Below, in pieces: positions 1-36,593 of a stretch of 64,000 nt of DNA. Origin of the DNA: Thermoanaerobaculia bacterium. GTDB taxonomy: Bacteria > Acidobacteriota > Thermoanaerobaculia > Multivoradales > UBA5704. Within the stretch, counting starts at the first letter, position 1. Each line of letters begins with the position of its first letter. The notes below the pieces were generated by a model that was given only the letters and a program-made list of their open reading frames with translations, made no database searches and was not told the DNA's origin. The translations under genes were made by a program, and so were the position numbers. Where the stretch lies: assembly GCA_044226625.1 (NCBI GenBank), contig JBGAGQ010000020.1:1-64000 (forward strand), in the 5' to 3' direction.

Positions 1-473
1 GCGATCAGGTAGCCGTCCATCCCCGAGCCGACGAAGACGCCGATGCGCCGGCCCTCGGCGTCGAACCGATCGGGATCGATCCCCGCCGCTTCGAGCGCCT
101 CCCAGGCGACCTCGAGCAGCACGCGATGCTGCGGATCGAGCAGCTCCGCCTCGCGCGGCGTGAAGCCGAACAGCCCGGCGTCGAAGAGATCGGCGCCGTC
201 GAGCAGGCCGCGCGCCTTGACGTACGCCGGATCGGCGATCTCCGCCTCCGAGACGCCGGCGGCGCGCAGCTCGTCATCGGACAGACGAGCGATCGTCTCG
301 CGCCCCGCCGCGAAGTTCGCCCAGAGCGCCTCGACCGTCGAGGCCCCGGGAAAACGGACGGCGAAGCTCACGACGGCGATTCCCAAGGCGCCGGACATGC
401 CGGATTCTGGGGCGTCCGAAGGATCGCCGTCGGGGGTGGGCGGGGCGGGGGTCGCGGTCGGCTCGTGGATCAT
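1..473 (-). CDS. Type I PKS / hybrid NRPS-PKS, N-terminal part of ketosynthase domain (runs off left edge)
   Basis: Not in ORF track. Manual translation from ATG at 473: MIHEPT...GIAVVSFAVRFPGASTVEALWANFAAGRETI...DPAYVKARGLLDGADLFDAGLFGFTPREAELLDPQHRVLLEVAWEALEAAG...GVFVGSGMDGYLI, a classic KS N-terminus. GAGAG RBS-like sequence upstream; starts 47 bp after the NRPS stop. Confidence 0.93.
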   Translation of the reverse strand, partial: MIHEPTATPAPPTPDGDPSDAPESGMSGALGIAVVSFAVRFPGASTVEALWANFAAGRETIARLSDDELRAAGVSEAEIADPAYVKARGLLDGADLFDAGLFGFTPREAELLDPQHRVLLEVAWEALEAAGIDPDRFDAEGRRIGVFVGSGMDGYLI

Positions 474-520
474 GGCTCTCTCGATTTCCGTCTTTTTCCA
501 TCTCGAAGGCAAAAACGTCA

Positions 521-3500
521 TCAGATTCGTCGCCGGACGCGAGCGCGCCGCCGTTCGAGCTCGGCGAGCCCTTCGCGGCGCTCGACGCTGCGCAGCCGGG
601 CGGCCGACAGTTGCTCGACCTGACGCGCCTCGACCTCGGCTCCCCCGGTTTCGGAGAGGCTCGCGGCGAGCCGGCGCAGCGTCGGATGCTGAAACAAGGT
701 GACCAGGGGAATCTCGCGGCCGATCTCGACTTGGACGCGGCTGTGGAACCGCACCAGCGAGACGGAGCTCGCCCCGAGATCGAAGAAGTTGTCGTCCAGG
801 CCGGCCGCGCCGAACAGCTCGGTCCAGAGCCCCAGGAGACGCGCCTCGAGCCCACCGGCCGGCGGCGCCTCGAGCGATCGCGCCTCGAGCGTCCGCGCCT
901 CCGGAGCGCCGAATGCGGGCAGCGCGCGGCGATCGACCTTCCCGCCGGGCGCGATCGGCAGCGCGGGGAGGACCGCGATCGCCGCCGGGATCATCTGGAC
1001 GGGGAGCCGTGGGGCCAGGTGGGCGAGCAGATCCTCGGGCGACGGAGCGGCGGACGGGGCCGCCACCCAGGCGACGAGGCGATCGGCGAAACGGTCCGAC
1101 CGTTCGACCCCCGCGACCGCCGCGGCGACCGCCGGGTGGGTCATCAGCGCCGCCTCGATCTCTCCCAGCTCGATGCGGAAGCCGCGCAGCTTGACCTGCC
1201 CTCCGGGACCTTCGACCCGGCCGAGGAACTCGAGGTCCCCGCCGGGCAGGTGGCGGACGAGGTCGCCGGTCCGATAGAGCCGCGCGCCGCGATCCCCCTC
1301 GGCGGTCGACGGATCCGGCACGAACCGGTCGGCGGTGAGGTCGGGGCGATCGAGGTAGCCGCGAGCGAGGCTTGGGCCGCCGAGCAACAGCTCCCCCACC
1401 ACGCCGCGCGGCACCGGTCGGAAATGGGCATCGACGACGGCGACGCGGATGTGCGGCATCCCGCGGCCGATCGGCAGGCGCGCCGGCACGTCGCTCGTCC
1501 GCGGGATCGGCCAACCCGCCGCGATGACCGTGGTCTCGGTCGGGCCGTAGACGTTGACCAGGCGGAGGGCGGGCTCGCGCGCGAGGAGGTCGCGCACCGA
1601 GTCGCCGTGCCCTGCCTCGCCGCCGAAGCGCACCTCCCGTAACGACGCCGGACAGCGCAGGTCCTCGGCCGCGATCGCCGCGCAAATCTGGCTCCAATAC
1701 GCCGTCGAGAGGAAGACGACGCTCACTCGCCGCTCCTCGAACTGACGGAGCAGCTCGCGCGCGCCGGGCACTTCGGTGCCGCGGATCGACAGCGCGCCCC
1801 CGGCGGCGAGGGGAGCGAAGATCTCCTCGACGCTGCCGTCGAAGCCGAGCGACGAGAACTGCGGCATCCGGTCGTCAGGACCGAGTCCGAGGACCTCCGT
1901 CTGAGAGGCGATATAGGCCTCCAGCGCGCCGTGCGAGACGGCGACCCCTTTGGGCCGCCCCGTCGAGCCCGAGGTGTAGGTGACGTAGGCGAGCCGTGCC
2001 GGATCGAAAGCCGGTGCGGTAGGAACCTTCCGCTCGTCCCCTACGTCGTTCTCGAAATCGGTACCCGGAGCGGCCACGCGTTCGATCCGGGCATCGTTCA
2101 GCAGGACCACCGGCATCGTGAGCGTCGGAAGCCGCTCGGCCCAGCGAGCGGCGATCCGGAACGCCCAGGCCCGCTCGTCCGAGCGCCCGGCCTCGCGCGG
2201 GGCGACCAGCGCGCGGCAGGCGCTATCCGCGAGAACGAAGGCGATTCTCTCGGCGGGATACCCCGCGTCGAGCGGCACGTAGGCGCAGCCGACGGAGAGG
2301 ATCGCGTGGATCGCGATCAGCGCCTCGAACGATCGATCGAGCGCGATCGCCACCCGGTCCTCGGGGCGCAAATCCAAGGCGCGGAAGCGGCGGGCGAGCG
2401 CCCGCGAGCGCGACACGAGCGCGCCGAACGTGAGGACCGCATCGCCGAAGAATGCCGCCGGCCGGTCGGGCGCCCGCTCCGCCCAGGCCGCCACCCGCTC
2501 GGTCCAGGGCGACACCTCCGCGGGATCGTGGCCGGCGCGCCATTCGACCAGGACTTGATGGCGCTCTCCTGGTCCCAGCATCGGCAGGTCGCCCCAGGGC
2601 GCGCCGTTCGGGTCGTCGACCGCGGCGGCGAGGAGGCGGCCGAGCTGATCCACCCAGCGCCAGGCGGTCGTCCGATCGAACAGGTCCGCGGCGATCTCGA
2701 GCCGTCCCGCCATGCCGTCCGGCGTCCGCTCGATCGACAGCAGCAGCTCGAATTTCGCGTCGATCGTCGAGCCGTCAAGCTCCTCGAGGTCCGCGAGGAC
2801 CGTCAAGGAGAGATCGCCGAACCGGGCTCCCCGGAGCGGGCTCTCCGCCTGCCAGTTAAGCGCGGCCTGGACTAACGGCGGCCGGCTGGGATCGCGATCC
2901 CGCGCGACTACTTCCACCAGGCGCTCGAACGGCATCTCCGCGTGGGCGAGCGCGTCGAGCGCTCGGTTTCGTACCCGGCCGAGCAGATCGGCGAAGCTCC
3001 CTTCCGCTCCTGAGAGACCGACCCGGTCGATTCGCAGCGGCACGACGTTGGCGAAGAATCCGATCAGCGGCTCGATCTCGGGCCGATCGCGGCCAGAGAC
3101 CGGCGTGCCGAGCAGCAGCGGCGCCCGTCCCGAAGCGACCGTCCAGCGCGCGAGCAAGGCGCCGAATCCGGCCGCGAGCACGGCGAACGCCGTCGTCCCC
3201 TGCGCGCGGGCGAGCGCCTCGATTCGTTCCGCGAGACCGAGGCCCCAAACGAGCGGTACGGCGAGGCCCCGGGTGGAAAGGACCGGCGGACGCGTCCGGT
3301 CGGTCGGCAGGTCGAGCACCGTGGGTACTTGGGCCAGCTCGTGGCGCCAGAACTGGATCTGGCGAGAGGTCTCTTCTCCCTCGACCCTGCCCGCGGTCTC
3401 ACCGCTAGCCTCCCGGCCGACGAGGGCGTCGGCCCAACGCCGCCGCTGCCAGGCGGCGTAGTCGGCCACCTGGATCGACAGCGCGGGAAGCGCCGCGGCG

Positions 3501-6500
3501 CGCCCCGCCGAGAGCGCCGCAAGCGCCTCTCCCACCTCGGCGACCAGCAGGCCGATCGACGCGCCGTCGGAGACGGCGTGGTGGTGCTCGAAGAGCAGCA
3601 CGTGGTCACCCCCGTTCGTCGCCGGGTGCGAAGCGAGGCGCAGGAGCAGGGCGCGGAACAGCGGACCCACGGCGAGATCGAACGGCAGGCGCGCGCGATC
3701 GCGGGCGAGGCGCCGAACCTCCGCGGCGCGGGGCGTGGCATCCAGCGACGCGAGATCGATCGCGGGGAGCGCCATGAGCCCGGGCGGCGCGATCGCGAGA
3801 CGCGGACGGCCCTCCCGCTCGGGGAAGCTCGCGCGGAGCCCTTCGTGCCGCCGAGCGACCTCGGCGATCGCCGCGGCCAACCGCGGCGGTTCGAGCGGCC
3901 CCGTGAGGCGCAAGGCGACCGGTAGGTTGTAGGCCGCCCCGGCGCCCATCCGGTCGAGGAACCAGAGCCGCTCCTGCGCGAGCGAGAGGGGGCGCTCCGC
4001 CCGGGACGGAAGCGGAACGATCGGCGGGCTCGCGGCGACCGCTTTGGCGGGGCTCGAGACCGCGGAAACGCCGGCCGCGATCCGCTCGGCGAGCTCGCGC
4101 ACGGTCGGCCGCTCGAACAGGGCCTTGAGCGGCAGCGCCAGACCGAACCGGCGCCGAACCGCGGAGAGCACCCGGGCCGCGAGCAGCGAATGGCCGCCGA
4201 GGGCGAAGAAGCCGTCGTGGGCGCCGATCGGTTGTCTCTCCCCGACGGCATCGACGGAGCCCAGAACCTCGCCAAAGATCTCCGCCACCTTCGTCTCGAT
4301 CGGCCCGGAAGGAGGCTCGTACGACGGCGCCCCGGAGTCGGGCTCGTGAGGTGCGACCGGCCGGCGCCTTTCCGGCTCAGGCGCGAGGCGGCGGTCGATC
4401 TCGGACAACGGGAGCGAAGGATCGTCCACGGCCGCTTCCAGCAGCTCGACGAAGCTCCGCGCCCAACGCTCCACGCTCGCCCGAGCGAAGAGGTTGGCGT
4501 CGTATTCGAAACGACCGACGAGAATCCCTTCGACCTCTCGGAGCGCAAGCGCGAGATCGAGCTTCGCGGTCGCGGTCGAAAGCTCTTCGATCTCGATCGC
4601 GAGGCCCGGGATGTTCGGCGGGGCGAGCGGCCGGTCCTGGTAGGTGAACAGCACGGAGAAGAGAGGCGGCCGGCCGTCGCGCCGTGCTGTCGCGGCGCCC
4701 AGCTCTTCGATCAAACGCTCGAGCGGCAGGTCGCCGCGCGAGAGGGCCGAAAGCGCCGCGCCCCGCGCGCGGAGGACGAGGTCCGCGAAGCTCGGATCGC
4801 CGTCGGTCCGCAGCCGAACCGGCACGGTGTTCACGAACAGACCGATCAGCGGCTCGATCTCCTCGCGGGTCCGCCCTGCCACCGGAACGCCGATCACCAG
4901 ATCGTCCTGCCCCGCGACTCTCGCGAGCAACGACGCCAGGGCGGCGAGCGTCCACTGGAACGGCGTCGCCCCGAACGACCGCGCCCGGGCAAACAGCCGC
5001 GTCGAAAGGGCCGCCGAGAGGGCGACCGGCACCTCCCCGCCGCGCGATCCAGCGCGGAGCCGGTCCATTCCATCAACGGGAAAATCGGTCGGTAGATCGA
5101 GCCTCTCCGGCGCCCCTGCGAGCTCGGCCCGCGCGAGGTCGAAAGCAGGCTCCAACGCGCCGCGCGCCAGCTCCTCGCGCTGCCACGCGGCGAAGTCGGC
5201 GTAGGCGATCGGCAGCTCGGGCAACGGCGACGGCCGCCCGGCCTCGGCCGCCTCGGCCACCTCCATCAGGACTCCCAGCTCGCGGGCGAACAGGGCGAGC
5301 GAAGCGCCGTCGGCCGCGAGGTGGTGGATCGTCGCGGCGAGCCGCGCCTCCCGTGGGGCCAGCGCGAGCCAGAGCGCACGCAGGAGCGGCTCGCGGCCGA
5401 TCGCGAACGGGCGGCGCGCCGCCGCGGTTTCGATCCGCCGCGCTTCCGACGCCCTGGCGTTCGAGACGGCCCGGAGATCGACGCGAGGCATCCGAAGCAG
5501 ACGAGACGACCAGGGGATCTCCCATCCACGGACGTCCGTGATCCAGGAATTGCCGACGAGCGTCTCGACCTCCACGAACCGGGTGCGGAGAGGTGCGTGG
5601 CGGCTGAGGATCGCACCGAGCGCCGCGGCGAACCGTGGCGCGAGCCGGTCCGGTTCGCCGCCGCGGATCCCCAGGACGAACGGCAGATGGTAGGCGGCGG
5701 TGCCCGGCTCCAGTCGTTCGAGGAATTCCATCCGCTCGACCGCGAACGAGAGCGGCTCTCCTTCCGGATCGCGCGTCCGGCGCGTCGGGGGAGATCCCCC
5801 TCGCCGTTCGTTCGCTCGAAGCTCGCGTGCGAGCCCCGCGGGGGTCGGCGCGGCGAAGAATCGGGCGAGCGGAAGCGTCGCGGCCCGCGCGCCGAACACC
5901 TCCCGCACCCGCGCGAGCAGCCGCGCCGCGAGCAGGGAGCCACCGCCGAGGGCGAAGAAGTCCTCTCGGACCGCGACCCGCTCCCGCCCCAGCACCTCGG
6001 CGAACAGAGCGGCGACCGTCGCCTCGATCTCGTCGCCCCCAATCGACTCGCTCGCCCCTCCATCCACGGCGTCGCGCGCGGGGAGGAAACTCGGACGCAA
6101 GGCGCGACGGAGCCGAAGCTCCGCCTCCTCCTCGGCGCGAAACACTGGCACCGACGAGAGCGGCGAGCCGGAGCCAAGCGAGAGGGCCGAGACGAACGAA
6201 AGCAGGCGATCGTAGGCGGCGAGCCAGCGGTCGATCGTCGAGCGATCGAAGAGATCCGAGTCGTATTCGGCTGAGATGGCGAGACCGCCGTCGGGAGTCG
6301 GCGTCGCGTCGAGCGTCAGATCGAAGCGCGCGGTGCCGACGTCGACCCGGCGCGGTGAGAAGGTGACGCCACCCACCTGCCAAGGAGAGAGCGGCTCCTC
6401 CAGGACGAAGAGGACCGGAAACAGCGGGCTCCGCGCCGTATCGCGTCGCGGCGAGAGATCTTCCACCAGGACCTCGAACGGCAGGTCGCGGTGGGCGAGT

Positions 6501-9500
6501 GCGAAACGCACCGCGTCGCGCGCTCGCGCGAGAAGCGCTTCGGCCGCCGGGTCGTCGCCCAGGTTGACGTCGAGCACGAGGGTGTTGCCGAACATGCCGA
6601 TCAGCCGCTCCACCTCGACGCGCGGCCGGATCTCGACCGGCGTGCCCAGGGGGATGCGCGGCTCGCCGGTCAGTCTCGCGAGCAAGGCGAACGCGGCGGC
6701 GGAGAGCGCCTGGAACCGGCTCGCGCTCGATCGCCGCGCGGCTTCGTCGAGACCGGCGACCACCGCCGCGGAGATCGATCGGGATGCGACGTCTCCGCGG
6801 CCCGAGCGCGCCTCGGGCCGGTCGCGATCGGTGGGGAGATCGAGAAGCGGAAGGCCGGAGAGGCGTTCTCTCCAGGTCGCGAGAAGGGTCTCCAGCCGCT
6901 CGGGGTCGAGCGCCTCGCGTTGCCAGACCGCGAAATCCGCGAACTGGATCGGCAGCTCCGGAAGCCGCCCCGCCCTCGCCTCGACCGAGGCCGACCAAGT
7001 CTCGGCGAGCTCGGCGGCGAATATCCCGAGCGAGCCGCCGTCGGCCGCGGCATGGTGGAGCGAGAGAGCGAGCCGAAACTCGTCCGGCCGCTCCCCGACC
7101 AGCAGAGTACGGAGCACCACGCCGCGGGATAGATCGAGCGGCAAGGTCCCCAACGCCTGAACGAGGCGAGCGCCCTCGTTCTTCCGACGTTCGGCGGGGA
7201 CAGCGCGAAGATCCGCGAAGGGGAGTGGTGGGATCGATGATCCGACCGGCCGCGCAATCTGGCGCGGCCCCGCCGAACCGTCGCGGATCGCGGTCCGCAA
7301 GACCTCGTGCCGCGCCACCACCCGGGCGAGCGCCGCCGCGAGACGCGCGGGCGCCGCACCGTCGAGCGCCCCCGCGATCTCGACCTCTCCCGCCAGGTGG
7401 TAGGTCGGCCGCCCGGGAGCGAGCTGGTCCAGGAACCAGATCCGCTCCTGCGCGAAGGCGAGCGGCAGGCCCTCCTTCGGACGGCCGCACGCCACCAGGG
7501 GCAACGAAGCCACGGGCGATCCAGCCTGCGCACCTCCTTCGGCGAGCCGGACTCCCAGCCCCGCCACGGTCGGCGCCTCGAACAGGTCCGCGACGGGCAG
7601 CTCGCGGCCGAGCCGCCGAGCGACTCGAGCCGCCGCCCGCGCCGCGAGCAGCGAATGTCCGCCGAGGGCGAAGAAGTCGTCGTGGACCCCCACCTTTTCG
7701 CGCCCCAACACCTCCGCGAAGATCTCGGCGAGAGCCACCTCGATGCGGTTCCGCGGCGCGACGTATTCGGCTCCGCCGGGCTCTTCCGCGGCGAGCCGAC
7801 CGAGCGCCTTGCGGTCGAGCTTGCCGTTCGGCAGACGCGGCAGCGTATCGAGCCGCGCGAGCGTCCCCGGCACGAGATAGCCGGGGAGGCGCCCTTTGAG
7901 CTCGGCGAGGATCGCCGCGGTCTCCGCCTCTCCGGCGACGAATCCCGCGAGCCGACGGTCTCCCCCCTCGCCCACCACGGCGACCGCCGCCTCGCGTACG
8001 CCCGGCACGGCGAGCAGCGCCGCCTCGACCTCCCCCAGCTCCACGCGGAAACCGCGCACCTTCACCTGGTTGTCGATACGGCCGAGGTAATGGAGCGTCG
8101 GCCGGCCGAAATGCGGATCTCGAAGGTCGAGTCGCGACCGGTCGCCCGTCGTGTAGAGCCGTGCCCCTGGAACGCCGGAGAACGGATCGGGAACGAATCG
8201 CTCCGCGGTCAGGTCGGGCCGTCCGAGGTAACCGCGCGCGAGACCGGCTCCGGCGAGACGCAGCTCACCGGGCACGCCCGCGGGCAACAGCTCGCCGAAC
8301 CGTCCAACCACGTACCCCGAGGTACCCGGAAGGGGTTGGCCGATCGGCGGCGGCGGCCCCTCCTCGCCTCGGCGGATCTCCTGCCAGGTCGAATACGTCG
8401 TGTCCTCGGAAGGCCCGTACAGGTTGTTCACCCGACGCACGCTCGGGCTCGAAGCGAAGATCCGCTCGACGAGCGTTCCGGGAAGCGCCTCGCCCGCGAG
8501 GTTCACGGCGAGGATGCTCGCGGGCAGACCCTCGGAACGGACCAGCTCGGCGAGCGCCGACGGCACGGTGTTGATCAGCGTCACCGGATGCCGCGCCGCC
8601 GCCACGGCGAGATCAAGCGCGTTGTCGGCGAGCACCAGCGCCCCCCCAGAGGAGAGCGTCGCGAACAGCTCGAAGACGGAAAGATCAAAGCAGACCGAGG
8701 TGGCGAACAGCACCGCCTGCAACTCGTCGGCAGGGAACGCCGAGAGCGACCAGGAGATGAACCCCGCGGCAGTCCCGTGATCGATCGCCACGCTCTTCGG
8801 CCGCCCGGTGGAGCCCGAGGTGTAGATCAGATAAGCGAGATGCCGCGGCTCGGGGCGGGCCACCCTCGCGAGATCTCGGCCCGTCTCCCGATGATCGATC
8901 AAGTCCTCGATCGGCAGGGCGACCTCCGCCGGAACCAGATGGGCGAGCCCGCGCTCCACGAGGCAGATCCGCGCGCCCGAATCGTCGAGCAGAAAGCGCA
9001 GGCGCTCCTCCGGATACGCCGGATCGAGCGGCACATAGGCACCCCCGGCGGCGAGCACGCCGAGGAGCGAGGCGACCAGATCGGGCCCCCGCGAGAGGAG
9101 GACCCCCACCCGTTCCTCCGGCGCCACGCCGCGCGCCCGAAGCACGTCGGCGAATCCCTGCGCGCGCGCGGCGAGTTGGCCGTAGGTCAGCCGCTCCTCC
9201 GCGCCCACCACGGCGAGCGCGCCCGGCCGCTCGGCGGCGAGGGCGAAGAAACGCGCGTGCAGGAGCGCAAGCCCGGGAGTCGGCACCGCCGCTCCTCCGT
9301 CGCTCGCCGCGAGGATCTGCGCCCGCTCCGCATCCGTGAGCAGCGGCAGCTCGGACAGGCGCACCGGGGTACCGGAGGCGATCGCTTCGATCGAGCGCTC
9401 CCAGGCGGCGAGCCAGCGCTCGATCGTCGCGCCGTCGAATCGCTCGGTGTCGTACTCCGCCCAGATCTCGAAACCGGCCGCGGCGGGAACCACCGCGAGC

Positions 9501-12500
9501 GCCAGATCGAGCTTAGCCGTCCCCGAATCGAGCCGGCGCGGCAGCAGCTCGAGCGCGCCGGCCCGGCGCGGCGCGAGCGGCGGCTCGAGCGAAAGCAGCA
9601 CGTCGAACAGCGGGTTCTGCGCTAGGTCGCGACGGGGCGCGATCTCTTCCACCAACAGCTCGAACGGCAGCTCTTCCCGCGCATAGGCGGCGAGCGCCCC
9701 GGCGCGCATCCGTTCGAGCAACTCGGGAGCCGTCGGGTCGTCGCCCGTTTCGAGGTCGAGGACGAGGGTGTTGGCGAGGAAGCCGAAAACGCCCGCGAGC
9801 TCCGGTGCATTTCGGTTCGCGACCGGCGTGCCGATCGCCGTCTTCGCCCGTCCCGAGAGGCGCGCGAGCAGGGCATGGAGCGCCGCGCCGAGGAGCATGA
9901 ACGGCGTGGCGCCGAACGACCGTGCCCGCGCGGCGAGACGCTCGCCGAGGCCGCCGCCGAAGCGGGCGGAGAGCGTCCGTCCCGCACCGGTCCGGCGCGC
10001 ACCGCGCGCGCGGTCGGCCGGCAGGTCGAGCGGCTCGAGATCGGCCAAACGATCGCGAAAATAGGCGAGCGGCTCGCGGACGCGAGAGGCGGTGAGATGC
10101 TGGGTCTGCCACCGCGCGACGTCGGCGAGCTGGATCTCCGCCGGAGGAAGATTCGGCGCCGCCCCTCGGCAGAACGCGCCGTACGCCGCCTCGAACTCTC
10201 CCCAAAAAAGATCGAGCGAGGCACCGTCGGCGATTAGGTGGTGGAAAACCGAGACGAGCTGGGCGCGCGTCGGGCCGAACATCAAGGAGGCGAAGCGGAC
10301 CAGAGGCCCGGCCGCGAGATCGAAGGGCCGACGCGCGAGCTCGCGGGCCAACCGTTCCGATTCCGCGGCTTCAGGGCCTAGCGCCGACAGATCGACGCGA
10401 GGCAGGAGGGCACCGCTCACCGCGGAGGCGATCTGGTAGGGCTCCCCTTCTTCGTTGGGGATCGCCGTCCTTAGGGCCTCGTGGCGCTCGACCAGCGCTA
10501 TGAGCGTCTTTTCGAGCGCGCCCTCGTTCCGCTTGCCGCGAAGCTCCACCGCCCCGGCGACGTGATAGGTCGCCCGTCCCGGATGCAGCCGCTCCAGGAA
10601 CCAGAGCCGCCGCTGCGGGAAGGTGAGCGGCGAGCGTTGGCCGCGGACTCCAGATCGGACTCGTGGCAGCGGCTCCCCACCCGCGTCTCCCTCGGTGAGC
10701 CTTTTCGCCAGCTTTTCCGCCAACCTCTCCGCCAGGCCGGATACCGTCGGCCTCTCGAACAGCGCCACGAGCGGCAGCTCGCGTTCGAAGGCCCGCCCCA
10801 CGCGCGCCGCGGCGCGCGCGGCCGACAGCGAATGGAGCCCGAGCCCGAGGAGGTCCTCGTGCCGACCGATCGGACGCGACGTTCCCAGCACCTCGGCGAA
10901 GATCCCCGCGACGATCTCCTCGGTGGCGTTCTTCGGCGGCTCGTACGCTTCCCCCCCGGTCCCGAAGCTCGGCTCGGGCAATCTCCGCCGATCGATCTTG
11001 CCGTTCGGAGTCAGCGGGATCGCCGAGAGCTCGACGAACGCGCTCGGGATCATCGCCTCGGGCAACCGCGCCGCGAGCGCCGATTTGAGCCGTTCGACGT
11101 CGAAAGCCCGCTCGGTCGGCACAACGTAGGCCGCGAGCCGCGCCCGCTCCCCCGTTCCGAAGACGGCGGCGGCCGCCCCCGAAACCCCTGGCGCGGCCAG
11201 GATCGCCGCTTCGATCTCCCCCAGCTCGATCCTCTGGCCGCGCACCTTGACCTGCGCGTCGATTCGGCCCAGGAAATCGAGCACCCGCGACCCGTTCCCG
11301 TCCACTTTCCAACGGACCCGATCGCCGGTTCGATAGAGGCGCGCGCCCGGCTCGCCGGAAAACGGATCGGGGATGAACCGCTCGGCCGTCAGGTCCGGGC
11401 GCCGGTGGTAGCCGCGAGCGAGCCCCCTCCCGCCGAGCGCGAGCTCTCCCGCCTCGCCAAACGGCGCGAGCTGACGGTTGCGATCGAACGCCCGGTCGAG
11501 GACGTAGGCGCGCACGCCGTCGATCGGCCGTCCGATCGACGGCGCGCCTTCTTCTTCGCGCGGATCTCCGGCCCGCACCTCGCCGGCGGTCGCCACCACC
11601 GCGTTCTCGGTCGGCCCGTAGTGATTGACGAGCGCGAAGGGAAGCCCGGCCGGCGGGTTCGAGCGCAGCCGGTCGCCGCCGGTCAAGATCACGCGGAGCC
11701 CGCGGCCTGGGCGGGAGTCCGCCGGCTCCCTTTTCGCCAATGCCCACGTACCGGCGAGGCACGCCTCGGCGATCGGGGTCGAGAGGAAGGCGACCGTCGC
11801 CTCGACGCGCTCGAGCCACGCGGGCAGGCGCTCCGGATCGGTGCGCATCCCTGCCTCTGGCGCGACCAGGGCGGCGCCCGCGGCGAGCGGCGGCCAGGTC
11901 TCCCAAACCGCCGCGTCGAACGCCGGGCCCGCGAGCAGCGGCGTCCGGTCCGAAGGGGTCAGGCGGTAGGTTGCGAGATGCCACGCGAACAGGTTCGCGA
12001 GCGCACCGTGCGGCACGACGACCGCTTTTGGCCGGCCGGTCGAGCCGGAGGTGTAAATCGCGTACGCCGCCTGCTCCGGCGCGACGTTCGCCGGCCGGGT
12101 AAGGGGCCGGCCACCTGGCGCCTCGAGATCGAGCACCGGGCAGGAGAAGATCCGCCGGGCTCGCTCGAGCATCTCGCGGGAAGCGAGCACGATCGCGGCT
12201 CCGCTGTCGGCGATCTCGAAAGCGAGCCGCTCGTCGGGATGAGCCGGATCGAGCGGCAGGTACGCCCCGCCCGCCAAAAGCGCCGCGAGCTGGCCGATCA
12301 CCGCCGCGGCCGAGCGTCCGGCGAGAAGGGCGACGAAGCGCTCCGCGCCCACCCCGCGCGCCGCGAGATCCCCACCCAGCGCGAGCGCCCGGTTCCAGAG
12401 ATCCCCGTAGTTGAGAACCCTGCCCGCTTCGACGATCGCAACCGCCGTCGGGTCGGCGGCGACCCGCGCGGCCACCGCTTCGGGGATGAGCTGGAGCGGG

Positions 12501-15500
12501 CCTCCCTTGGCTCCTGAAACTCCCGCCCCTCCCTCGTCGATCAGCTCCGCCCGCTCGGCGGCCGAGAGCAGCGAGAGACCGCTGAGCGGAGCCTCCGGTC
12601 GCGCGATCGCCGATTCGACCAGCCGTTCGAGCCGCGCGAGCGCCCGTTCGATGGTCTTCGCCTCGAACAGATCGGCGTTCGCCTCGAGCGCCAGATGAAG
12701 CGAGGAACCGTGCGTGCCGTTCGACCGCGCGGCATGGAGCGCCCATTCGAACGGCACCCGCCGCTCGGGCAGGGCGAGCGCCCGCACGGTCTGCCCGGCG
12801 AGGTCGACGTGCGCCCCCTCGATTCCCAGCGCGAACGCCGCGAGCTCCCCCGCCCGCTCGAACGTCGCGGCGACCTGCGCGAGCGGCGGCCGAGAGGGAT
12901 CGCGGCGCGGCCGCAGCGCCTCGGCGAGCCGCGAGAACGGAGCCTCCGCCGCCGAGGCGACGGCCGCCGCCGAGGCGCCCCGGATCCGCATCGCATGGAC
13001 GGCGAACGACGGATCGCCGTCGATCTCGACCGGGATCGCCGCCGGTTGGACGAGGTAACCGATCAGCCTCTCGAGGCCCGCGTGCTGTCGACCCGAGGTC
13101 GGCGCGGCGATCGCGAACCGCGATTGGCCGGTGATCCGATGGAGATACGCGGAGAACAGCGCGACGAGCAGAGCGAAAGGGGTCGATCCCGTCGAGCGCG
13201 CGAGCCGGTCGAGGCCGATCTCGACCTCCGGGGAGAGCGGCTGCGCGCGGAGGAGCCCGCGGAAGCTCCGAACCGCCGGACGCGGCCGGTCGGTCGGCAG
13301 GTCGAGGTCCTCGACACCGGTGAGCGCCGCCCGGCGCGCCGAAAACACGGAGCCCTCGCCCGTCGGCAGCTCGACAAGGCGCTCGGCGCGCCAGGCCAGC
13401 AGATCGGCGAGCGAGATCTCCGCGGGAGGCGCCAGCCGGGCGAGCCGGCAGGAGACCTCCGCGGCGTAAAGAGCCGTCAGGTCCTCGACGAACAGCGCGA
13501 GCGACGCGAAGTCCGCCACCAGGTGATGGACCGCGAAGCCGATCGCCGTCTCCCCGCCCGGACGCTCGAGCAGCGCGAGGCGGACGAGCGGTCCCGTCGC
13601 AAGGTCGAACGGTTCGAACAGGAGAGCGCCGAGACGATCGGAGAGATCCCCGTCGCCTTCGACGTGCTGCTCGCGAATCAGGTCGATTCGAGGCGAAGCG
13701 AAGGTCTGGATCGCCGCGCTCCGCTCGCCGCCCGCTTCCGAAAAGACGGTGCCGAGCGCCGGATGGCGGGCGACGGCGCGCTCGGCCGCCGCGGCGAGCG
13801 CTTCGGCGTCGAGCCCCTCGGCGAGCGCGGCCACCGCGATCGTGTAGGCCCCCGGCGCGAGGCGTTCCGCCGCGAAGAGCGCTTCCTGTTCCAGGCCGAG
13901 CGGCAGGACCGTGGCGCCCGCGGCGGATCCAGCGCGAGGACCGGAAGAGCCCCGCGCCGCCGAGGCGCCGGCCAGCAGGTCGGCGAGGCTTCCACCGTCG
14001 AGCAGCTCGGAGAGCGGCAGGTCGACCCCGAGCGCCCGCGCCGCGACCGACAGCTCGACCGCCGAGAGCGAATCGAGCCCCTGGGCGGAGAGCGGACGGG
14101 CCGGATCGAACCGTTCGGCGGGAAGACGGAGGATGCGCGCCGCGACGGCGGAAAGGGCTTCGAGCGTCGGACGTTCCGCTCCGGATCCGCCCGCTGCTTC
14201 GTGGCGCGACGTGTCCGCCCGCCGGACCGCCTCGCCGAGAGTACCGGCGAGATAGGCGGCGCGCGCCGCGCCGCGCCGGACCTTGCCGCTCGTCGTCTTC
14301 GGAAGCGCCCCGGGCGCGAGCAATCTAACGTCCGCCACCTGGACTTCTTGCCGCTCGGCGATCGCAGCGCGCACGGAGTCGCCGATCGCCTCCGCCGTCG
14401 CGCGGGCGTGGCGCGAGACCTCGGCGACCAGGATCAAGAGTTCCTCAGTTTCCTCACCTTCAGCGATCGAGAACGCGGCCGATCCCCCGGCGATCAGATC
14501 CTCATGTGCTCCTTCGGCCGTCCGCTCGAGGTCCTGCGGGTAGTGGTTACGACCGCGGAGGATGATCAGGTCCTTGAGGCGGCCGGTGACGTAGAGCTCG
14601 CCCGCCACGACGAACCCGAGATCGCCCGTCCGCAGATAACGGTCGGTCGAGCCCGCAATCCGCGCACCGAAGGTCGCGGTGGAAAGCTCCGGCCGATTGC
14701 GGTAGCCCGCCGCGATCGACGGACCGCTCACCCAGATCTCGCCGATCCGGCCTTCCGCGCAGTGGCGCCCGAGCGACGCCGTCTGGCGGTCGTCCCCAAC
14801 CTCGGCTTCGACGATCGCGAGCTTCTGATCTCCCCACGAGGCACCGCAGGAAACCAACCGGCGCGCGTTGCGCGCCCCTTCCGCGGCCGGCCGCGCCTCG
14901 TTGGCTTCGAGCCCTTCCGCGTCGAACGCGGCGACGCGCGGCGGTCGGCCGAGCGTCGGCCCGGCGACGAACAACGTCGCCTCGGCAAGGCCGTAGCACG
15001 GATAGAAGGCCTCCTGCCGAAAGCCACTCGGCGCGAAGCGACGCGCGAAGGCGACGAGCGTCTCCGCCCGCACCGGCTCGGCGCCCGAGAAGGCGACCCG
15101 CCACGACGAAAGATCGAGCCGCGCGGCCTCCTCCTCGCTCACTTTGCGCGCCGCGAGCGCGTAGGCGAAATCGGGGCCGCCACTCGTCGTCGCGCGGTAT
15201 CTCGCGATCGCCTCGAGCCAGCGCGCCGGCCGTTGCAGGAACGCGACCGGCGCCATCAGGATGCAGCGCCCCCCACTCCACAGCGGTTGGAGCACGTTCC
15301 CGATCAGCCCCATGTCGTGGTAGAGCGGCAGCCAGCCGACCACGATCGAGCTCTCGTCCTGGTCGAACGCGGTCGCGATCATCGCGAGGTTCGCCGCGAG
15401 GTTCGCGTGGCTGACGATCACGCCCTTCGGCTCGGAAGTGGAGCCCGAGGTGTACTGGAGGAACGCGGTGGCGCTCGGGTCGATCTCGGGTAGCGACTGC

Positions 15501-16102
15501 GGGGACGAGGCAACTCCGCCTTGCGTCTCGGACAGCGCGATCCACGGGAGATCACGAAGCGCCGGCACACCGGCGGCGAGCGACGGTCCGGCCGCCGCGA
15601 TCTCGGCCGTCGTGAGCACCGCCCGGGGCGCGGCATCCGCCGCGACGCCCGCGAGGCGCTCCCCCTCGCGCTCCGGCCGGCGTAGCGACCGAGGGGGGTA
15701 GGCGGGAACCGCCACCACGCCGCCGAGCAGGCAGCCGAAGAAGCCGATGAGAAATTCGAGCCCGGGAGGGAACAGCAGGAGCGCCCGATCGCCGGTCGCG
15801 AGCCCCATGGCGTGAAGGTCGCGCGCCACCCCCTCCGCCCTCGACCGGAGCTCACCCCAGGTGAGCGACGCGGCTTCCGTTTCGCCGTCCGCGAGCCAGG
15901 TGTAGGCGAGGCGCCGAGGTGTCGCCTCCGCGCGTTCGATCAGGCGAACGACCACCGACGCCGTCCCAACCCCAATCGGCGGGAAAGCCTGAGGCTCCCC
16001 GGTTTCGATGCCGGGGGGCACGAAGTCGACGCGATCGTTCATCGAATCGTCGGGATCGGAGCTCGAGCTGCGATCGGAAGCGCGAGGCGCGCCGGGCTCC
16101 AT
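521..16102 (-). CDS. Lipopeptide NRPS: FAAL-ACP-C-A-T-C-A-T-C-T-C-T-C-A-T
   Basis: FAAL motifs (FLQYTSGSTSEPKG, WLPLYHDMGLIG); six carrier Ser motifs (GLDSL, GLHSL, GGHSL, GGGSL, GGHSL, GASSV); five HHxxxD motifs; three further A domains with YTSGSTG, YGPxE, TGD and GKxDR motifs. No E or TE domain. True start could be ATG 16042. Confidence 0.96.
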   Translation of the reverse strand: MEPGAPRASDRSSSSDPDDSMNDRVDFVPPGIETGEPQAFPPIGVGTASVVVRLIERAEATPRRLAYTWLADGETEAASLTWGELRSRAEGVARDLHAMGLATGDRALLLFPPGLEFLIGFFGCLLGGVVAVPAYPPRSLRRPEREGERLAGVAADAAPRAVLTTAEIAAAGPSLAAGVPALRDLPWIALSETQGGVASSPQSLPEIDPSATAFLQYTSGSTSEPKGVIVSHANLAANLAMIATAFDQDESSIVVGWLPLYHDMGLIGNVLQPLWSGGRCILMAPVAFLQRPARWLEAIARYRATTSGGPDFAYALAARKVSEEEAARLDLSSWRVAFSGAEPVRAETLVAFARRFAPSGFRQEAFYPCYGLAEATLFVAGPTLGRPPRVAAFDAEGLEANEARPAAEGARNARRLVSCGASWGDQKLAIVEAEVGDDRQTASLGRHCAEGRIGEIWVSGPSIAAGYRNRPELSTATFGARIAGSTDRYLRTGDLGFVVAGELYVTGRLKDLIILRGRNHYPQDLERTAEGAHEDLIAGGSAAFSIAEGEETEELLILVAEVSRHARATAEAIGDSVRAAIAERQEVQVADVRLLAPGALPKTTSGKVRRGAARAAYLAGTLGEAVRRADTSRHEAAGGSGAERPTLEALSAVAARILRLPAERFDPARPLSAQGLDSLSAVELSVAARALGVDLPLSELLDGGSLADLLAGASAARGSSGPRAGSAAGATVLPLGLEQEALFAAERLAPGAYTIAVAALAEGLDAEALAAAAERAVARHPALGTVFSEAGGERSAAIQTFASPRIDLIREQHVEGDGDLSDRLGALLFEPFDLATGPLVRLALLERPGGETAIGFAVHHLVADFASLALFVEDLTALYAAEVSCRLARLAPPAEISLADLLAWRAERLVELPTGEGSVFSARRAALTGVEDLDLPTDRPRPAVRSFRGLLRAQPLSPEVEIGLDRLARSTGSTPFALLVALFSAYLHRITGQSRFAIAAPTSGRQHAGLERLIGYLVQPAAIPVEIDGDPSFAVHAMRIRGASAAAVASAAEAPFSRLAEALRPRRDPSRPPLAQVAATFERAGELAAFALGIEGAHVDLAGQTVRALALPERRVPFEWALHAARSNGTHGSSLHLALEANADLFEAKTIERALARLERLVESAIARPEAPLSGLSLLSAAERAELIDEGGAGVSGAKGGPLQLIPEAVAARVAADPTAVAIVEAGRVLNYGDLWNRALALGGDLAARGVGAERFVALLAGRSAAAVIGQLAALLAGGAYLPLDPAHPDERLAFEIADSGAAIVLASREMLERARRIFSCPVLDLEAPGGRPLTRPANVAPEQAAYAIYTSGSTGRPKAVVVPHGALANLFAWHLATYRLTPSDRTPLLAGPAFDAAVWETWPPLAAGAALVAPEAGMRTDPERLPAWLERVEATVAFLSTPIAEACLAGTWALAKREPADSRPGRGLRVILTGGDRLRSNPPAGLPFALVNHYGPTENAVVATAGEVRAGDPREEEGAPSIGRPIDGVRAYVLDRAFDRNRQLAPFGEAGELALGGRGLARGYHRRPDLTAERFIPDPFSGEPGARLYRTGDRVRWKVDGNGSRVLDFLGRIDAQVKVRGQRIELGEIEAAILAAPGVSGAAAAVFGTGERARLAAYVVPTERAFDVERLKSALAARLPEAMIPSAFVELSAIPLTPNGKIDRRRLPEPSFGTGGEAYEPPKNATEEIVAGIFAEVLGTSRPIGRHEDLLGLGLHSLSAARAAARVGRAFERELPLVALFERPTVSGLAERLAEKLAKRLTEGDAGGEPLPRVRSGVRGQRSPLTFPQRRLWFLERLHPGRATYHVAGAVELRGKRNEGALEKTLIALVERHEALRTAIPNEEGEPYQIASAVSGALLPRVDLSALGPEAAESERLARELARRPFDLAAGPLVRFASLMFGPTRAQLVSVFHHLIADGASLDLFWGEFEAAYGAFCRGAAPNLPPAEIQLADVARWQTQHLTASRVREPLAYFRDRLADLEPLDLPADRARGARRTGAGRTLSARFGGGLGERLAARARSFGATPFMLLGAALHALLARLSGRAKTAIGTPVANRNAPELAGVFGFLANTLVLDLETGDDPTAPELLERMRAGALAAYAREELPFELLVEEIAPRRDLAQNPLFDVLLSLEPPLAPRRAGALELLPRRLDSGTAKLDLALAVVPAAAGFEIWAEYDTERFDGATIERWLAAWERSIEAIASGTPVRLSELPLLTDAERAQILAASDGGAAVPTPGLALLHARFFALAAERPGALAVVGAEERLTYGQLAARAQGFADVLRARGVAPEERVGVLLSRGPDLVASLLGVLAAGGAYVPLDPAYPEERLRFLLDDSGARICLVERGLAHLVPAEVALPIEDLIDHRETGRDLARVARPEPRHLAYLIYTSGSTGRPKSVAIDHGTAAGFISWSLSAFPADELQAVLFATSVCFDLSVFELFATLSSGGALVLADNALDLAVAAARHPVTLINTVPSALAELVRSEGLPASILAVNLAGEALPGTLVERIFASSPSVRRVNNLYGPSEDTTYSTWQEIRRGEEGPPPPIGQPLPGTSGYVVGRFGELLPAGVPGELRLAGAGLARGYLGRPDLTAERFVPDPFSGVPGARLYTTGDRSRLDLRDPHFGRPTLHYLGRIDNQVKVRGFRVELGEVEAALLAVPGVREAAVAVVGEGGDRRLAGFVAGEAETAAILAELKGRLPGYLVPGTLARLDTLPRLPNGKLDRKALGRLAAEEPGGAEYVAPRNRIEVALAEIFAEVLGREKVGVHDDFFALGGHSLLAARAAARVARRLGRELPVADLFEAPTVAGLGVRLAEGGAQAGSPVASLPLVACGRPKEGLPLAFAQERIWFLDQLAPGRPTYHLAGEVEIAGALDGAAPARLAAALARVVARHEVLRTAIRDGSAGPRQIARPVGSSIPPLPFADLRAVPAERRKNEGARLVQALGTLPLDLSRGVVLRTLLVGERPDEFRLALSLHHAAADGGSLGIFAAELAETWSASVEARAGRLPELPIQFADFAVWQREALDPERLETLLATWRERLSGLPLLDLPTDRDRPEARSGRGDVASRSISAAVVAGLDEAARRSSASRFQALSAAAFALLARLTGEPRIPLGTPVEIRPRVEVERLIGMFGNTLVLDVNLGDDPAAEALLARARDAVRFALAHRDLPFEVLVEDLSPRRDTARSPLFPVLFVLEEPLSPWQVGGVTFSPRRVDVGTARFDLTLDATPTPDGGLAISAEYDSDLFDRSTIDRWLAAYDRLLSFVSALSLGSGSPLSSVPVFRAEEEAELRLRRALRPSFLPARDAVDGGASESIGGDEIEATVAALFAEVLGRERVAVREDFFALGGGSLLAARLLARVREVFGARAATLPLARFFAAPTPAGLARELRANERRGGSPPTRRTRDPEGEPLSFAVERMEFLERLEPGTAAYHLPFVLGIRGGEPDRLAPRFAAALGAILSRHAPLRTRFVEVETLVGNSWITDVRGWEIPWSSRLLRMPRVDLRAVSNARASEARRIETAAARRPFAIGREPLLRALWLALAPREARLAATIHHLAADGASLALFARELGVLMEVAEAAEAGRPSPLPELPIAYADFAAWQREELARGALEPAFDLARAELAGAPERLDLPTDFPVDGMDRLRAGSRGGEVPVALSAALSTRLFARARSFGATPFQWTLAALASLLARVAGQDDLVIGVPVAGRTREEIEPLIGLFVNTVPVRLRTDGDPSFADLVLRARGAALSALSRGDLPLERLIEELGAATARRDGRPPLFSVLFTYQDRPLAPPNIPGLAIEIEELSTATAKLDLALALREVEGILVGRFEYDANLFARASVERWARSFVELLEAAVDDPSLPLSEIDRRLAPEPERRRPVAPHEPDSGAPSYEPPSGPIETKVAEIFGEVLGSVDAVGERQPIGAHDGFFALGGHSLLAARVLSAVRRRFGLALPLKALFERPTVRELAERIAAGVSAVSSPAKAVAASPPIVPLPSRAERPLSLAQERLWFLDRMGAGAAYNLPVALRLTGPLEPPRLAAAIAEVARRHEGLRASFPEREGRPRLAIAPPGLMALPAIDLASLDATPRAAEVRRLARDRARLPFDLAVGPLFRALLLRLASHPATNGGDHVLLFEHHHAVSDGASIGLLVAEVGEALAALSAGRAAALPALSIQVADYAAWQRRRWADALVGREASGETAGRVEGEETSRQIQFWRHELAQVPTVLDLPTDRTRPPVLSTRGLAVPLVWGLGLAERIEALARAQGTTAFAVLAAGFGALLARWTVASGRAPLLLGTPVSGRDRPEIEPLIGFFANVVPLRIDRVGLSGAEGSFADLLGRVRNRALDALAHAEMPFERLVEVVARDRDPSRPPLVQAALNWQAESPLRGARFGDLSLTVLADLEELDGSTIDAKFELLLSIERTPDGMAGRLEIAADLFDRTTAWRWVDQLGRLLAAAVDDPNGAPWGDLPMLGPGERHQVLVEWRAGHDPAEVSPWTERVAAWAERAPDRPAAFFGDAVLTFGALVSRSRALARRFRALDLRPEDRVAIALDRSFEALIAIHAILSVGCAYVPLDAGYPAERIAFVLADSACRALVAPREAGRSDERAWAFRIAARWAERLPTLTMPVVLLNDARIERVAAPGTDFENDVGDERKVPTAPAFDPARLAYVTYTSGSTGRPKGVAVSHGALEAYIASQTEVLGLGPDDRMPQFSSLGFDGSVEEIFAPLAAGGALSIRGTEVPGARELLRQFEERRVSVVFLSTAYWSQICAAIAAEDLRCPASLREVRFGGEAGHGDSVRDLLAREPALRLVNVYGPTETTVIAAGWPIPRTSDVPARLPIGRGMPHIRVAVVDAHFRPVPRGVVGELLLGGPSLARGYLDRPDLTADRFVPDPSTAEGDRGARLYRTGDLVRHLPGGDLEFLGRVEGPGGQVKLRGFRIELGEIEAALMTHPAVAAAVAGVERSDRFADRLVAWVAAPSAAPSPEDLLAHLAPRLPVQMIPAAIAVLPALPIAPGGKVDRRALPAFGAPEARTLEARSLEAPPAGGLEARLLGLWTELFGAAGLDDNFFDLGASSVSLVRFHSRVQVEIGREIPLVTLFQHPTLRRLAASLSETGGAEVEARQVEQLSAARLRSVERREGLAELERRRARVRRRI

Positions 16103-16202: not shown

Positions 16203-16862
16203 TTATGGGGACTCTGAGAAGACCTTTTCAGACAGCCAGCGCGTGAGCATTCGCAGCGCTTCCGGGCGAATCTCGTGCGCCATCGCGAACTCGCGGTAGA
16301 GCATTTGGACGCCGAACGTTCGCAGCCGCTCACGGCTGTCGCGGGCGCGCTCGATCTCGATCATCCGATCCTCGGTCCCGTGGAAAACCAGGACCGGCAG
16401 CGCCTCGTGCTCCGGGAGTTTGGGGAGGCTGTCCGCCAACGGTTCGGGGAGCCAGGTCGAAAGGGCCGCAATGCCGCGGAATCGCGCCGGCTCGCGAAGG
16501 CCGAGCTCGAACGCCATCAGACCGCCCTGGCTGAATCCCCCCACGGCCAGCCGCTTCGGATCGATCGGATAGGTTTCGATCGCCTCGTCGAGCCAGGCGC
16601 GCAACGTACCCGCGCGCTCGCGGAACTCCGCCTCGTTCGGGGGCTGCCCCGGCACGAGCTGGAACCAGCCGTAGCCCTCCATCCCGGGACCGACCTGGAG
16701 CGTCACCTCGCCCTGGGGGCAAAGGACGAGCGCTTGCCCCCCGTGGAGATGCGGAGCCAGCCCGAGCAGGTCGTGGGCGCTCGCCCCCCAACCGTGGCAG
16801 AGGACGAGGGTGGGAAACGGGCCGTCGCCCGCCGGAAGGTGGGCCGTGTGCAGAAGCTTCAT
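16203..16862 (-). CDS. Phospholipase/carboxylesterase (alpha/beta hydrolase)
   Basis: HGWG oxyanion region, GFSQG nucleophile, HGTED Asp and MAHEI His. Confidence 0.88.
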   Translation of the reverse strand: MKLLHTAHLPAGDGPFPTLVLCHGWGASAHDLLGLAPHLHGGQALVLCPQGEVTLQVGPGMEGYGWFQLVPGQPPNEAEFRERAGTLRAWLDEAIETYPIDPKRLAVGGFSQGGLMAFELGLREPARFRGIAALSTWLPEPLADSLPKLPEHEALPVLVFHGTEDRMIEIERARDSRERLRTFGVQMLYREFAMAHEIRPEALRMLTRWLSEKVFSESP

Positions 16863-34559: not shown

Positions 34560-35564
34560 TTAGGGCGACTCTTTCTCGCTCTGGATCTGTCGCAACGTGT
34601 CGAGGTCGATCGAGCGCCGGACGACCTCGCCTTGCCGCCGCGGCAGGGAATAAGGCAGACCGTTCAACCGCGCGTCGACCGCGCCCGAGCTGCCGAGCGT
34701 CAGCTCGATCGTGCGGTCCGCCTCGAGCTGGAGCGTCTCGCCCTGGACCCGCTTCTCGCTCACGTGTCGCGCGCCCGCGTCCATAACCGCGTCGACCCAA
34801 CAGTCGGCCGTGAAGTCGAGCGTCAGACGAAGCGCCCGAGCGGGAGTCGCCGGCGCAGGCGCCGGTGGAGGCTGGGGCGCTGGGCGCGTCGCGGCGGGAG
34901 GCGCGCTAGCGGCCGCGGGCGCCGCGGCCGCTCCGGAACCGAAGCCGGCCGGCGCGGCGGGATGGGCGCGCCGCTGATCCGCGAGCCAGGCGGCGAGCGC
35001 CACGACGCCGAGCAGCGCCGTGGTCGCGAGGCCGAGGAACAACCAGCGCCGCCAGGCGCCGCTGGACGACGGCCGCGACATCGTCAACGGCGGACCGCCG
35101 GCGAGCGAAACCGAGGAACCGGTGAATCCCTCCGAGCTGCCGGAGCCGGAAGAGCCGGCGGAACCGCCCTCCCGACCCTCGAGACCTTGGGCCGCGAGGA
35201 AATGGTTGACCACCTCGTCCGGATTCAGGCCGACGTACCGCGCGTACTCCCGCAGGAAGCCGCGCGCGAACACCGGCGCGGGAAGCAGGGCGAACCGGTT
35301 CTCCTCGAGCGCCTCGAGATACCGCAAGCTGATCTTCGTCCGCTCGGCGATCTCGCGCAGGCTCACCTCGCGCGCTTCGCGCTGCCGGCGCAGCCAGATG
35401 CCGAACGAGCCCGGATCGCCCTCGACCGGACGCTCGATCGGCGCCGGGGGCGCCGCCGGTCCGTCGGACTTGGCGCCACGCGACCGTGGCTCGACCGGGG
35501 AGGCCAATTCGGTTTCTGCTCCGCGTTGAGGAATTCGGCGTCGTTTGAAGGATTGTTCCGCCAC
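34560..35564 (-). CDS. rodZ: RodZ-like protein (HTH, TM helix, DUF4115-like C-terminus)
   Basis: FGIWLRRQREAREVSLREIAERTKISLRYLEALEEN..LPAPVFARGFLREYARYVGL; one TM; CWVDAVMD...LGSSGAV..LNG. Confidence 0.82.
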   Translation of the reverse strand: MAEQSFKRRRIPQRGAETELASPVEPRSRGAKSDGPAAPPAPIERPVEGDPGSFGIWLRRQREAREVSLREIAERTKISLRYLEALEENRFALLPAPVFARGFLREYARYVGLNPDEVVNHFLAAQGLEGREGGSAGSSGSGSSEGFTGSSVSLAGGPPLTMSRPSSSGAWRRWLFLGLATTALLGVVALAAWLADQRRAHPAAPAGFGSGAAAAPAAASAPPAATRPAPQPPPAPAPATPARALRLTLDFTADCWVDAVMDAGARHVSEKRVQGETLQLEADRTIELTLGSSGAVDARLNGLPYSLPRRQGEVVRRSIDLDTLRQIQSEKESP

Positions 35565-35729
35565 TTGGCTTCGAACTCTACGCGCCCGCCCCCTGGCGGT
35601 CAAATGCTGCAATCGAATAAATCGCCCTCTCGGACGACCGGCGTCCGCTCGGGCAATGAAGGGCGGACGAACGACGAACGATCGACGGAAAAACCGCTTC
35701 CGATCATGGGAAAGCGAAGGACGCGTGCC

Positions 35730-36500: not shown

Positions 36501-36593
36501 CCGCTCGTCGGCGATGGGGGCGATGGGATCGGCGCTCACCCCGGGGAGCTTACCGCCGAAGACGCCGGATTCTGCTATCGTTCGCGGTCCCCT

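Follow-up and report, generated by a model that had tools for sequence, protein, structure and literature searches.

How does a peptide assembly line fill carrier domains that have no adenylation (A) domain in their own module? This question is raised by gene 1, a nonribosomal peptide synthetase (NRPS) gene of a Thermoanaerobaculia bacterium (GenBank assembly GCA_044226625.1; here G000), in which modules 3 and 4 each consist of a condensation (C) domain and a carrier (T) domain only. The stretch analyzed, hereafter the window, is the first 64 kb (64,000 nucleotides) of contig C6 (JBGAGQ010000020.1) and has a guanine-plus-cytosine (GC) content of ~71%. The genome comprises 6.6 Mb in 133 contigs (97.9% complete, 5.5% contamination), and the nearest public relatives of the region are metagenome-assembled genomes of Thermoanaerobaculia and other Acidobacteriota. 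Judging from the domain contents of congeneric genomes, we lean slightly toward the explanation that redundant A domains of the same specificity were deleted and that the remaining ones load the orphan carriers.

Gene 1 has the domain order FAAL-T0-Cs-A1-T1-C2-A2-T2-C3-T3-C4-T4-C5-A5-T5 (Table 1), as called by Pfam, core-motif positions, and profile hidden Markov models (HMMs) of A, C, and T domains built from those of G000 itself. An earlier note on this DNA had read C-T-C-T in this region, without room for an A domain, and the profile searches confirm this reading. For the pieces containing module 3 (window 5840-7585) and module 4 (window 4073-5860), Pfam reported Condensation and PP-binding matches only, with no AMP-binding match at E<=1; the linkers are 56 residues between C3 and T3 and 34 residues between C4 and T4. 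NCBIfam likewise gave only NRPS-type C and carrier matches for these modules. When the genome was searched in all six frames with PF00501, matches on this contig fell at 1352-2488, 8225-9241, 11405-12469, and 14702-15937, and none between 2489 and 8224. The four C and T motifs named in the earlier note were found in the translation where it had placed them, on the minus strand and in one open reading frame (ORF). The possibility that C3 or C4 is an epimerization domain was rejected by eye, because the translation shows core motifs of the C type.

Assembly collapse, which the earlier note had named as something that would overturn its reading, was also rejected. The separate assembly G003, from the same genus, has the layout C-A-T-C-A-T-C-T-C-T-C-A-T on one 68.7-kb contig, and its orthologue (protein P0012) is 61% identical over the queried C3-T3-C4-T4 region. 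In a further metagenomic protein (P0016, 63% identical), the layout is C-A-T-C-T-C-T-C-A-T. Among Logan contigs, eight pieces from run X1 cover most of 4079-7658 with 0 differences, and two of these (6009-6313 and 4079-4591) span the two C-to-T junctions; X1 may be the source sample and therefore does not count as independent support. The C3-T3 junction is also spanned by a contig of another study (X2; 5980-6742, 66 differences, ~91% identity). Furthermore, collapse of an A2/A3 repeat would delete T2-C3 too, not A3 alone.

The assembly line continues beyond the end of the window on contig C31. Window positions 1-1480 match C31:54823-56301, the final 1479 bases of that contig, at 95.2% nucleotide identity; such an overlap between the head of C6 and the tail of C31 may reflect the joint binning of two strains or a variant bubble at which the assembly broke within the gene cluster. 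On C31, gene 2 encodes KS-AT-KR-T-C7-A7-T7-C8-A8-T8 (3785 aa; Pfam) and gene 3 (L081:363-7481) encodes C9-T9-C10-T10-C11-A11-T11 (2372 aa). The same three genes occur in the same order on one contig in G003, where the FAAL is on a separate ORF. The whole line thus has four A-less modules arranged as two tandem pairs, with A2 preceding the first pair and A11 following the second. The earlier description of the line as "otherwise colinear" is thus correct only in part, since a second C-T-C-T pair lies on the next contig. Within gene 3, C9, C10, and C11 are mutually 59-64% identical and T9, T10, and T11 63-68%, which identifies these modules as tandem copies of a single type; an A domain is left only in the last of the three. 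For the first pair, recent duplication of a C-T unit was ruled out by the low identity between C3 and C4 (40%) and between T3 and T4 (47%).

The specificity codes and their distribution among congeneric genomes carry most of the argument. Codes were read from a MAFFT alignment with columns anchored on A2 motifs, and orthology was assigned domain by domain from the best BLASTP match to the G000 domains. The A11 code (DLFNCALTYK) differs from that of A2 at one position, and the codes of A7 and A8 are DVWHMSLVDK and DALWLGGTFK, respectively. Going by code tables, A1 is putatively Leu-like, A2 putatively specific for Ala, A7 putatively Ser-like, and A8 putatively Val-like. No substrate was recognized for the A5 code, DGEFRGVVIK, which is identical in all five congeneric genomes (G000, G001, G003, G006, and G007).

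Modules 2-4 of gene 1 are C2-A2-T2-C3-T3-C4-T4 in G000 and G003, and both genomes have the gene 3 layout C9-T9-C10-T10-C11-A11-T11. In G006 and G007, the corresponding region is C2-A2-T2-C3-A3-T3-C4-T4, and the 10-residue code of A3 is that of A2; the contigs of these two genomes end before gene 3. In G001, the region is C2-T2-C3-A-T4: A2 and T3-C4 are missing, and the remaining A domain has the A2 code. Gene 3 of G001 (L104:10475-14299, G001:C117) is C9-T9-C11-T11, a C-T-C-T subunit that lacks A domains altogether. Four genomes (G000, G003, G006, and G007) have module 4, in each case without an A domain, and G001 lacks this module. In the linker alignments, every A-less module still has the beginning of its C-A linker as well as its A-T linker. 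In G001, a remnant of the A10 motif survives in C2-T2, and A11 was excised cleanly from gene 3, such that C11-T11 aligns with both A11 flanks. Three patterns emerge from this series: all A domains that come and go share the A2 code or a one-off variant of it, the C-T remainder is always kept after A loss, and at least one A domain with an A2-type code stays in the line of each genome examined. Such patterns are as expected if the A domains are functionally redundant, and unexpected if the orphan modules were dead or were fed another monomer by a dedicated enzyme.

Under the explanation that we favor, modules 3 and 4 would be working elongation modules that arose by clean in-frame loss of their own A domains, and T3 and T4 would be aminoacylated by A2, three domains upstream on the same polypeptide. 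The product would then start with acyl-Leu-Ala-Ala-Ala-X5, with putative residue names from the code tables, and the same logic would apply to C9-T9-C10-T10 in gene 3, directly upstream of A11. For the three genes together, the predicted product is acyl-Leu-Ala3-X-(hydroxy-ketide)-Ser-Val-Ala3. The anatomy, its conservation, the deletions, and the identity of the A2 and A3 codes are established; from these, we infer the pairing of A domains with carriers, the identity of the residue as Ala, and the addition of one residue per module. For module 3, an A domain of what would be the needed specificity, A2, is present elsewhere in the line, its 10-residue code being identical to that of the orthologous A3 in G006 and G007. 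The earlier note had offered the loading of T2, T3, and T4 by A2 as one of two options. That option gains comparative support from A3, as well as from G001, in which A2 is gone and an A domain with the same code is in module 3, and we consider it marginally probable.

A different choice of A domain is conceivable, in which A5 loads T4 or both T3 and T4 and, likewise, A8 rather than A11 loads T9 and T10, giving repeats of another residue. Loading of upstream carriers by a downstream A domain is documented for thalassospiramide (bioRxiv 10.1101/560987), and module 4 has no A-bearing orthologue that would fix its specificity. However, the A domain in the module 3 orthologues has the A2 code and not that of A5, and T3 and T4 are 58-59% identical to T2 and only 31-36% identical to T5. 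In gene 3, C9-C11 and T9-T11 are paralogous to the A11 module, and A8 is on another protein. We consider this assignment very unlikely.

The A-less modules themselves look maintained rather than decayed, as the earlier note had proposed. In the set of orthologues checked (G000, G003, G006, G007, G001, and P0016), the HHxxxDG motif and the GGxS serine are kept in C3, C4, C9, C10, and their T domains in every case. C3 orthologues are 60-64% identical with the motif kept, and C4 orthologues are 59-66% identical, each directly followed by T. Ratios of nonsynonymous to synonymous substitution rates (dN/dS) were calculated between G000 and G003 by the Nei-Gojobori method (NG86) and are rough, given dS of 0.7-1.1 and strong codon bias. 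They are 0.30 for C3, 0.20 for T3, 0.31 for C4, and 0.32 for T4 (i.e., 0.20-0.32 in gene 1), and 0.33 for C9, 0.42 for T9, 0.32 for C10, and 0.24 for T10 in gene 3. The values for the remaining domains (C, 0.22-0.32; T, 0.08-0.27) overlap with those of the A-less modules.

These data also bear on the idea that the A-less modules add no residue, being skipped or having the chain passed between carriers, with a product shorter than the module count. Skipping is documented in the nonlinear thalassospiramide lines (bioRxiv 10.1101/560987), G001 has one module fewer per triad, which indicates that module number is evolutionarily flexible, and the dN/dS values of the A-less C domains lie at the upper end of the range (0.30-0.33). 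Nevertheless, no orthologue has lost the catalytic His motifs or the carrier serines, and the dN/dS values lie far under 1, in a range that overlaps with that of A-bearing modules. The reading frame is also intact over ~1150 residues per pair in G000, G003, and the more distant P0002, P0026, and P0103. An unloaded T domain would also be expected to stall the line, not to be passed by; we know of no way in which a C domain hands the chain to an empty carrier. We consider skipping or mere passing of the chain improbable.

The second option of the earlier note was a trans-acting enzyme. In this case, a dedicated loader encoded outside the examined stretches, either a stand-alone A or A-T protein or a thioesterase-like shuttle, would charge T3, T4, T9, and T10, perhaps with a monomer other than Ala. 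Such systems exist, namely Cal22/Cal23 of WS9326A (PMC7539972) and LgnA of legonmycin (PMC8748450), and the A-free gene 3 of G001 requires some inter-protein loading. An Abhydrolase_2 gene (window 16203-16862) is located directly upstream of gene 1 in G000, G001, G003, and G006, and a Hydrolase_4 gene is found near the other end of the cluster in G001 and G003. Against this option, the scanned ORFs (window 16-47 kb and C31:23.5-36.8 kb) include no A, A-T, or PF00975-type gene, although with the genome split into 133 contigs this absence is not proof. The search for a type II thioesterase (TEII) shuttle in the same ORFs yielded no PF00975 match and no A-T donor; the gene that adjoins gene 1 is the Abhydrolase_2 gene. 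Of 25 related genomes, other families included, 18 have a single copy of this gene, which thus looks like a core gene and not a cluster-specific shuttle. Among 89 A-type domains genome-wide, seven have an A2-type code, all inside multidomain NRPS ORFs, and none of the 12 short A-type ORFs has such a code. One of the 12, an A-T ORF on C26 at the head of a larger NRPS cluster, has a code of the amino-acid type (DFWNIGMVHK), and most of the others lack Asp at the first code position. Finally, a dedicated loader leaves the one shared code of the A domains that come and go unexplained. With no candidate found in these searches, we regard the trans loader as unlikely.

A-less modules were also surveyed more widely. 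The 120 listed homologues were chosen by similarity to C3-T3-C4-T4 and are therefore a biased sample; C-T-C-T occurs in six of them (query included), and a lone A-less module in a further 12. In total, 20 A-less runs were found in 18 of the 120, and 10 of the 20 directly follow an A domain with the A2 code. When the four orthologues are collapsed, 7 of 17 runs do so, compared with a background of ~54 among 727 A domains, which, within this biased sample, speaks for shared loading. In a scan of a genome collection, C-T-C-T was found in none of 80 foreign loci and a single T-C-T in eight. A metagenome scan seeded with C4-T4 yielded 11 A-less runs in 78 loci, with a best match of 44% and with no close orthologue or tandem pair among these loci. 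The nearest A-bearing relatives of C4 were uninformative as a guide to its acceptor, as all of those beyond the orthologues are 39-45% identical with mixed codes.

Returning to shared loading by A2-type domains, several observations weigh against it. Only one of the 11 metagenome runs follows an A2-type A domain (three upstream A fragments have no code, and one run has no upstream A domain at all). For module 4, we infer the match to A2 specificity, and no A-bearing orthologue was found in the four genomes; A5, the other flanking A domain, may be its loader. The A-free gene 3 of G001 implies a loader on another polypeptide, such that a simple form in which a neighbor in cis does the loading is not general. 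For gene 3 of G000, A8 (putatively Val-like by its code) is the nearest upstream A domain and may be an alternative loader. A phylogeny of A2 and A3 was tried as a judge of loss versus gain and gave no resolution: A2 is not separated from A3 (73-83% identity, open forks), so the direction of change in A3 rests on linker anatomy only. Lastly, literature searches for the code string found no paper, and the residue names remain putative.

A broader version of shared loading would accommodate the G001 subunit. A domains of one specificity could act as line-wide shared loaders, within and across subunits, with the genus shedding redundant A domains module by module. Under this view, G006 and G007 keep A2 and A3, G000 and G003 keep A2 and A11, and G001 keeps one such domain together with an A-free C-T-C-T subunit. 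We put this version forward tentatively, as a possibility that falls short of being probable.

On its domain content, the predicted line fits a FAAL-primed lipopeptide hybrid of NRPS and polyketide synthase (PKS), with an N-terminal FAAL-type domain, a carrier, a starter C domain, and a PKS module. The position-code string of the FAAL-type domain (DMGGFGCLFK) is without an amino-acid-type pattern, and the motif of the first C domain (Cs) is HHLVADF. The features of the window are listed in Table 1.

Table 1. Features of the NRPS locus at the start of the window (coordinates are window positions).
Feature	Position	Strand	Details
Gene 2 start (KS N-terminus)	3..518	-	Pfam ketoacyl-synt 7.3e-32; truncated by contig end
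NRPS gene 1	521..16102	-	5193 aa, single ORF; Pfam, motifs, own HMMs
T5 carrier	668..868	-	GASSV; own HMM
A5	911..2506	-	code DGEFRGVVIK; PF00501 and own HMM
C5	2531..4012	-	HHAVSDG; own HMM
T4, A-less module 4	4091..4318	-	Pfam PP-binding 5.6e-15; GGHSL aa 3969 (window 4198)
C4, A-less module 4	4352..5785	-	Pfam Condensation 1.2e-59; HHLAADG aa 3593 (window 5326)
T3, A-less module 3	5831..6037	-	Pfam PP-binding 1.2e-09; GGGSL aa 3386 (window 5947)
C3, A-less module 3	6098..7495	-	Pfam Condensation 2.1e-68; HHAAADG aa 3016 (window 7057)
T2 carrier	7556..7762	-	GGHSL, Ser aa 2817
A2	7793..9265	-	code DLFNNALTYK; PF00501 and own HMM; proposed loader of T2, T3, T4
A1	10970..12490	-	code DAWFLGHVVK; PF00501 and own HMM
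FAAL-type acyl-AMP ligase (predicted lipid starter)	14255..15958	-	Pfam AMP-binding and AMP-dom_DIP2-like; own HMM

At the end of gene 3, no thioesterase (TE), reductase, or terminal C domain was found after the last carrier; the line terminates in this carrier and a ~40-aa tail, which is conserved in G000, G003, and G001. The genes downstream of gene 3 encode a sulfatase, an ABC transporter, a radical-SAM/SPASM protein, a MacB-type permease, a glycosyltransferase, and a Hydrolase_4 protein. The sulfatase gene (Pfam Sulfatase; L084:13178-14752) comes directly after gene 3 and is conserved at 85-86% in G001 and G003. Between the Hydrolase_4 and sulfatase genes, a block of ~10 kb (L084:1485-11087 = C31:23484-33086) holds the glycosyltransferase, permease, radical-SAM/SPASM, and ABC transporter genes. 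The two flanking genes are adjacent in G001 and G003, and the block in G000 may be an inserted cassette resembling those for ribosomally synthesized and post-translationally modified peptides. Many of the large acidobacterial NRPS homologues (P0002, P0024, P0028, P0035, P0042, and others) have internal sulfotransferase domains (PF13469, PF00685); the present cluster has no such internal domain but has the sulfatase gene after it. On the other side of gene 1, the ORFs scanned in window 16-47 kb encode a hydrolase, TruA, an FAD oxidoreductase, a PhyH dioxygenase, ThrA, a PLP enzyme, and other housekeeping-like proteins. One ORF of 1340 aa (window 34632-38654, plus strand) has Pfam matches only to GreA/GreB domains in its last 140 residues, and its N-terminal part may be an over-extension of the ORF at high GC or a real extension.

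If shared loading is true, the product would be a lipopeptide-polyketide with two tri-alanine stretches, made with six A domains (A1, A2, A5, A7, A8, and A11) for 10 amino-acid modules. In the broader, more tentative version with line-wide loaders, the NRPS would be on its way to a "trans-A" logic akin to that of the trans-acyltransferase (trans-AT) PKSs, and would provide a natural blueprint for minimizing synthetases of homo-oligomeric stretches. The five congeneric versions form a deletion series that may indicate which A domains are removable without loss of a module. Such information could be used in engineering smaller synthetases and in correcting the product predictions of genome mining, in which A-less modules are usually taken for errors or gaps. 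No new kind of biochemistry is revealed.

By its predicted organization, the line belongs to the nonlinear NRPSs in which A-less elongation modules would be complemented by the A domain of another module. The earlier note had singled it out as a candidate for an undescribed system, a label that does not stand, as A-less modules served by the A domain of another module are known (PMC7539972; bioRxiv 10.1101/560987; PMC11586506). Viomycin, andrimid, syringomycin, and yersiniabactin are cited as products of NRPSs with A-less modules (PMC7539972), and several nonlinear NRPSs have modules missing an A domain that are presumably loaded from upstream modules (bioRxiv 10.1101/560987).

The closest parallel to the proposed A2 loading of T2, T3, and T4, and to the A-free subunit of G001, is yersiniabactin HMWP2/HMWP1, in which a single A domain accounts for three Cys residues (one loaded in cis, two in trans) and thus supplies its own carrier and others, one of them on a second protein (PMC7539972). 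That system has heterocyclization (Cy) domains and Cys, whereas the present line has ordinary C domains with HHxxxDG, putatively Ala as the residue by its code, and two tandem pairs, and is known from sequence alone. Thalassospiramide (Ttc/Ttm) is similarly a hybrid NRPS-PKS lipopeptide line with A-less modules loaded by the A domains of other modules, located upstream or downstream (bioRxiv 10.1101/560987). In contrast to its trans-AT, module skipping, and pass-back, none of these is indicated here, and the PKS module has its own AT.

In viomycin/capreomycin, syringomycin, and rhodamide, C-T or T-C units without an A domain are likewise proposed to be served by another A domain of the line with matching specificity (PMC7539972; PMC11586506), as for modules 5 and 12 of rhodamide (PMC11586506). 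Those are single A-less modules, whereas here they occur in tandem, twice, and with congeners in which the A domain is present or absent. The multimodular NRPSs for WS9326A and legonmycin (LgnA/LgnB/LgnD) also contain a C-T module that lacks an A domain (PMC7539972; PMC8748450). Unlike the present cluster, beside which no such gene was found, they have dedicated stand-alone A-T proteins (Cal22/Cal23) or a TEII shuttle, LgnA, that moves the aminoacyl group between carriers (PMC8748450). The mechanism proposed here is not new; what sets this locus apart is the presence of two tandem pairs in one line together with a within-genus deletion series, in an uncultured acidobacterial lineage.

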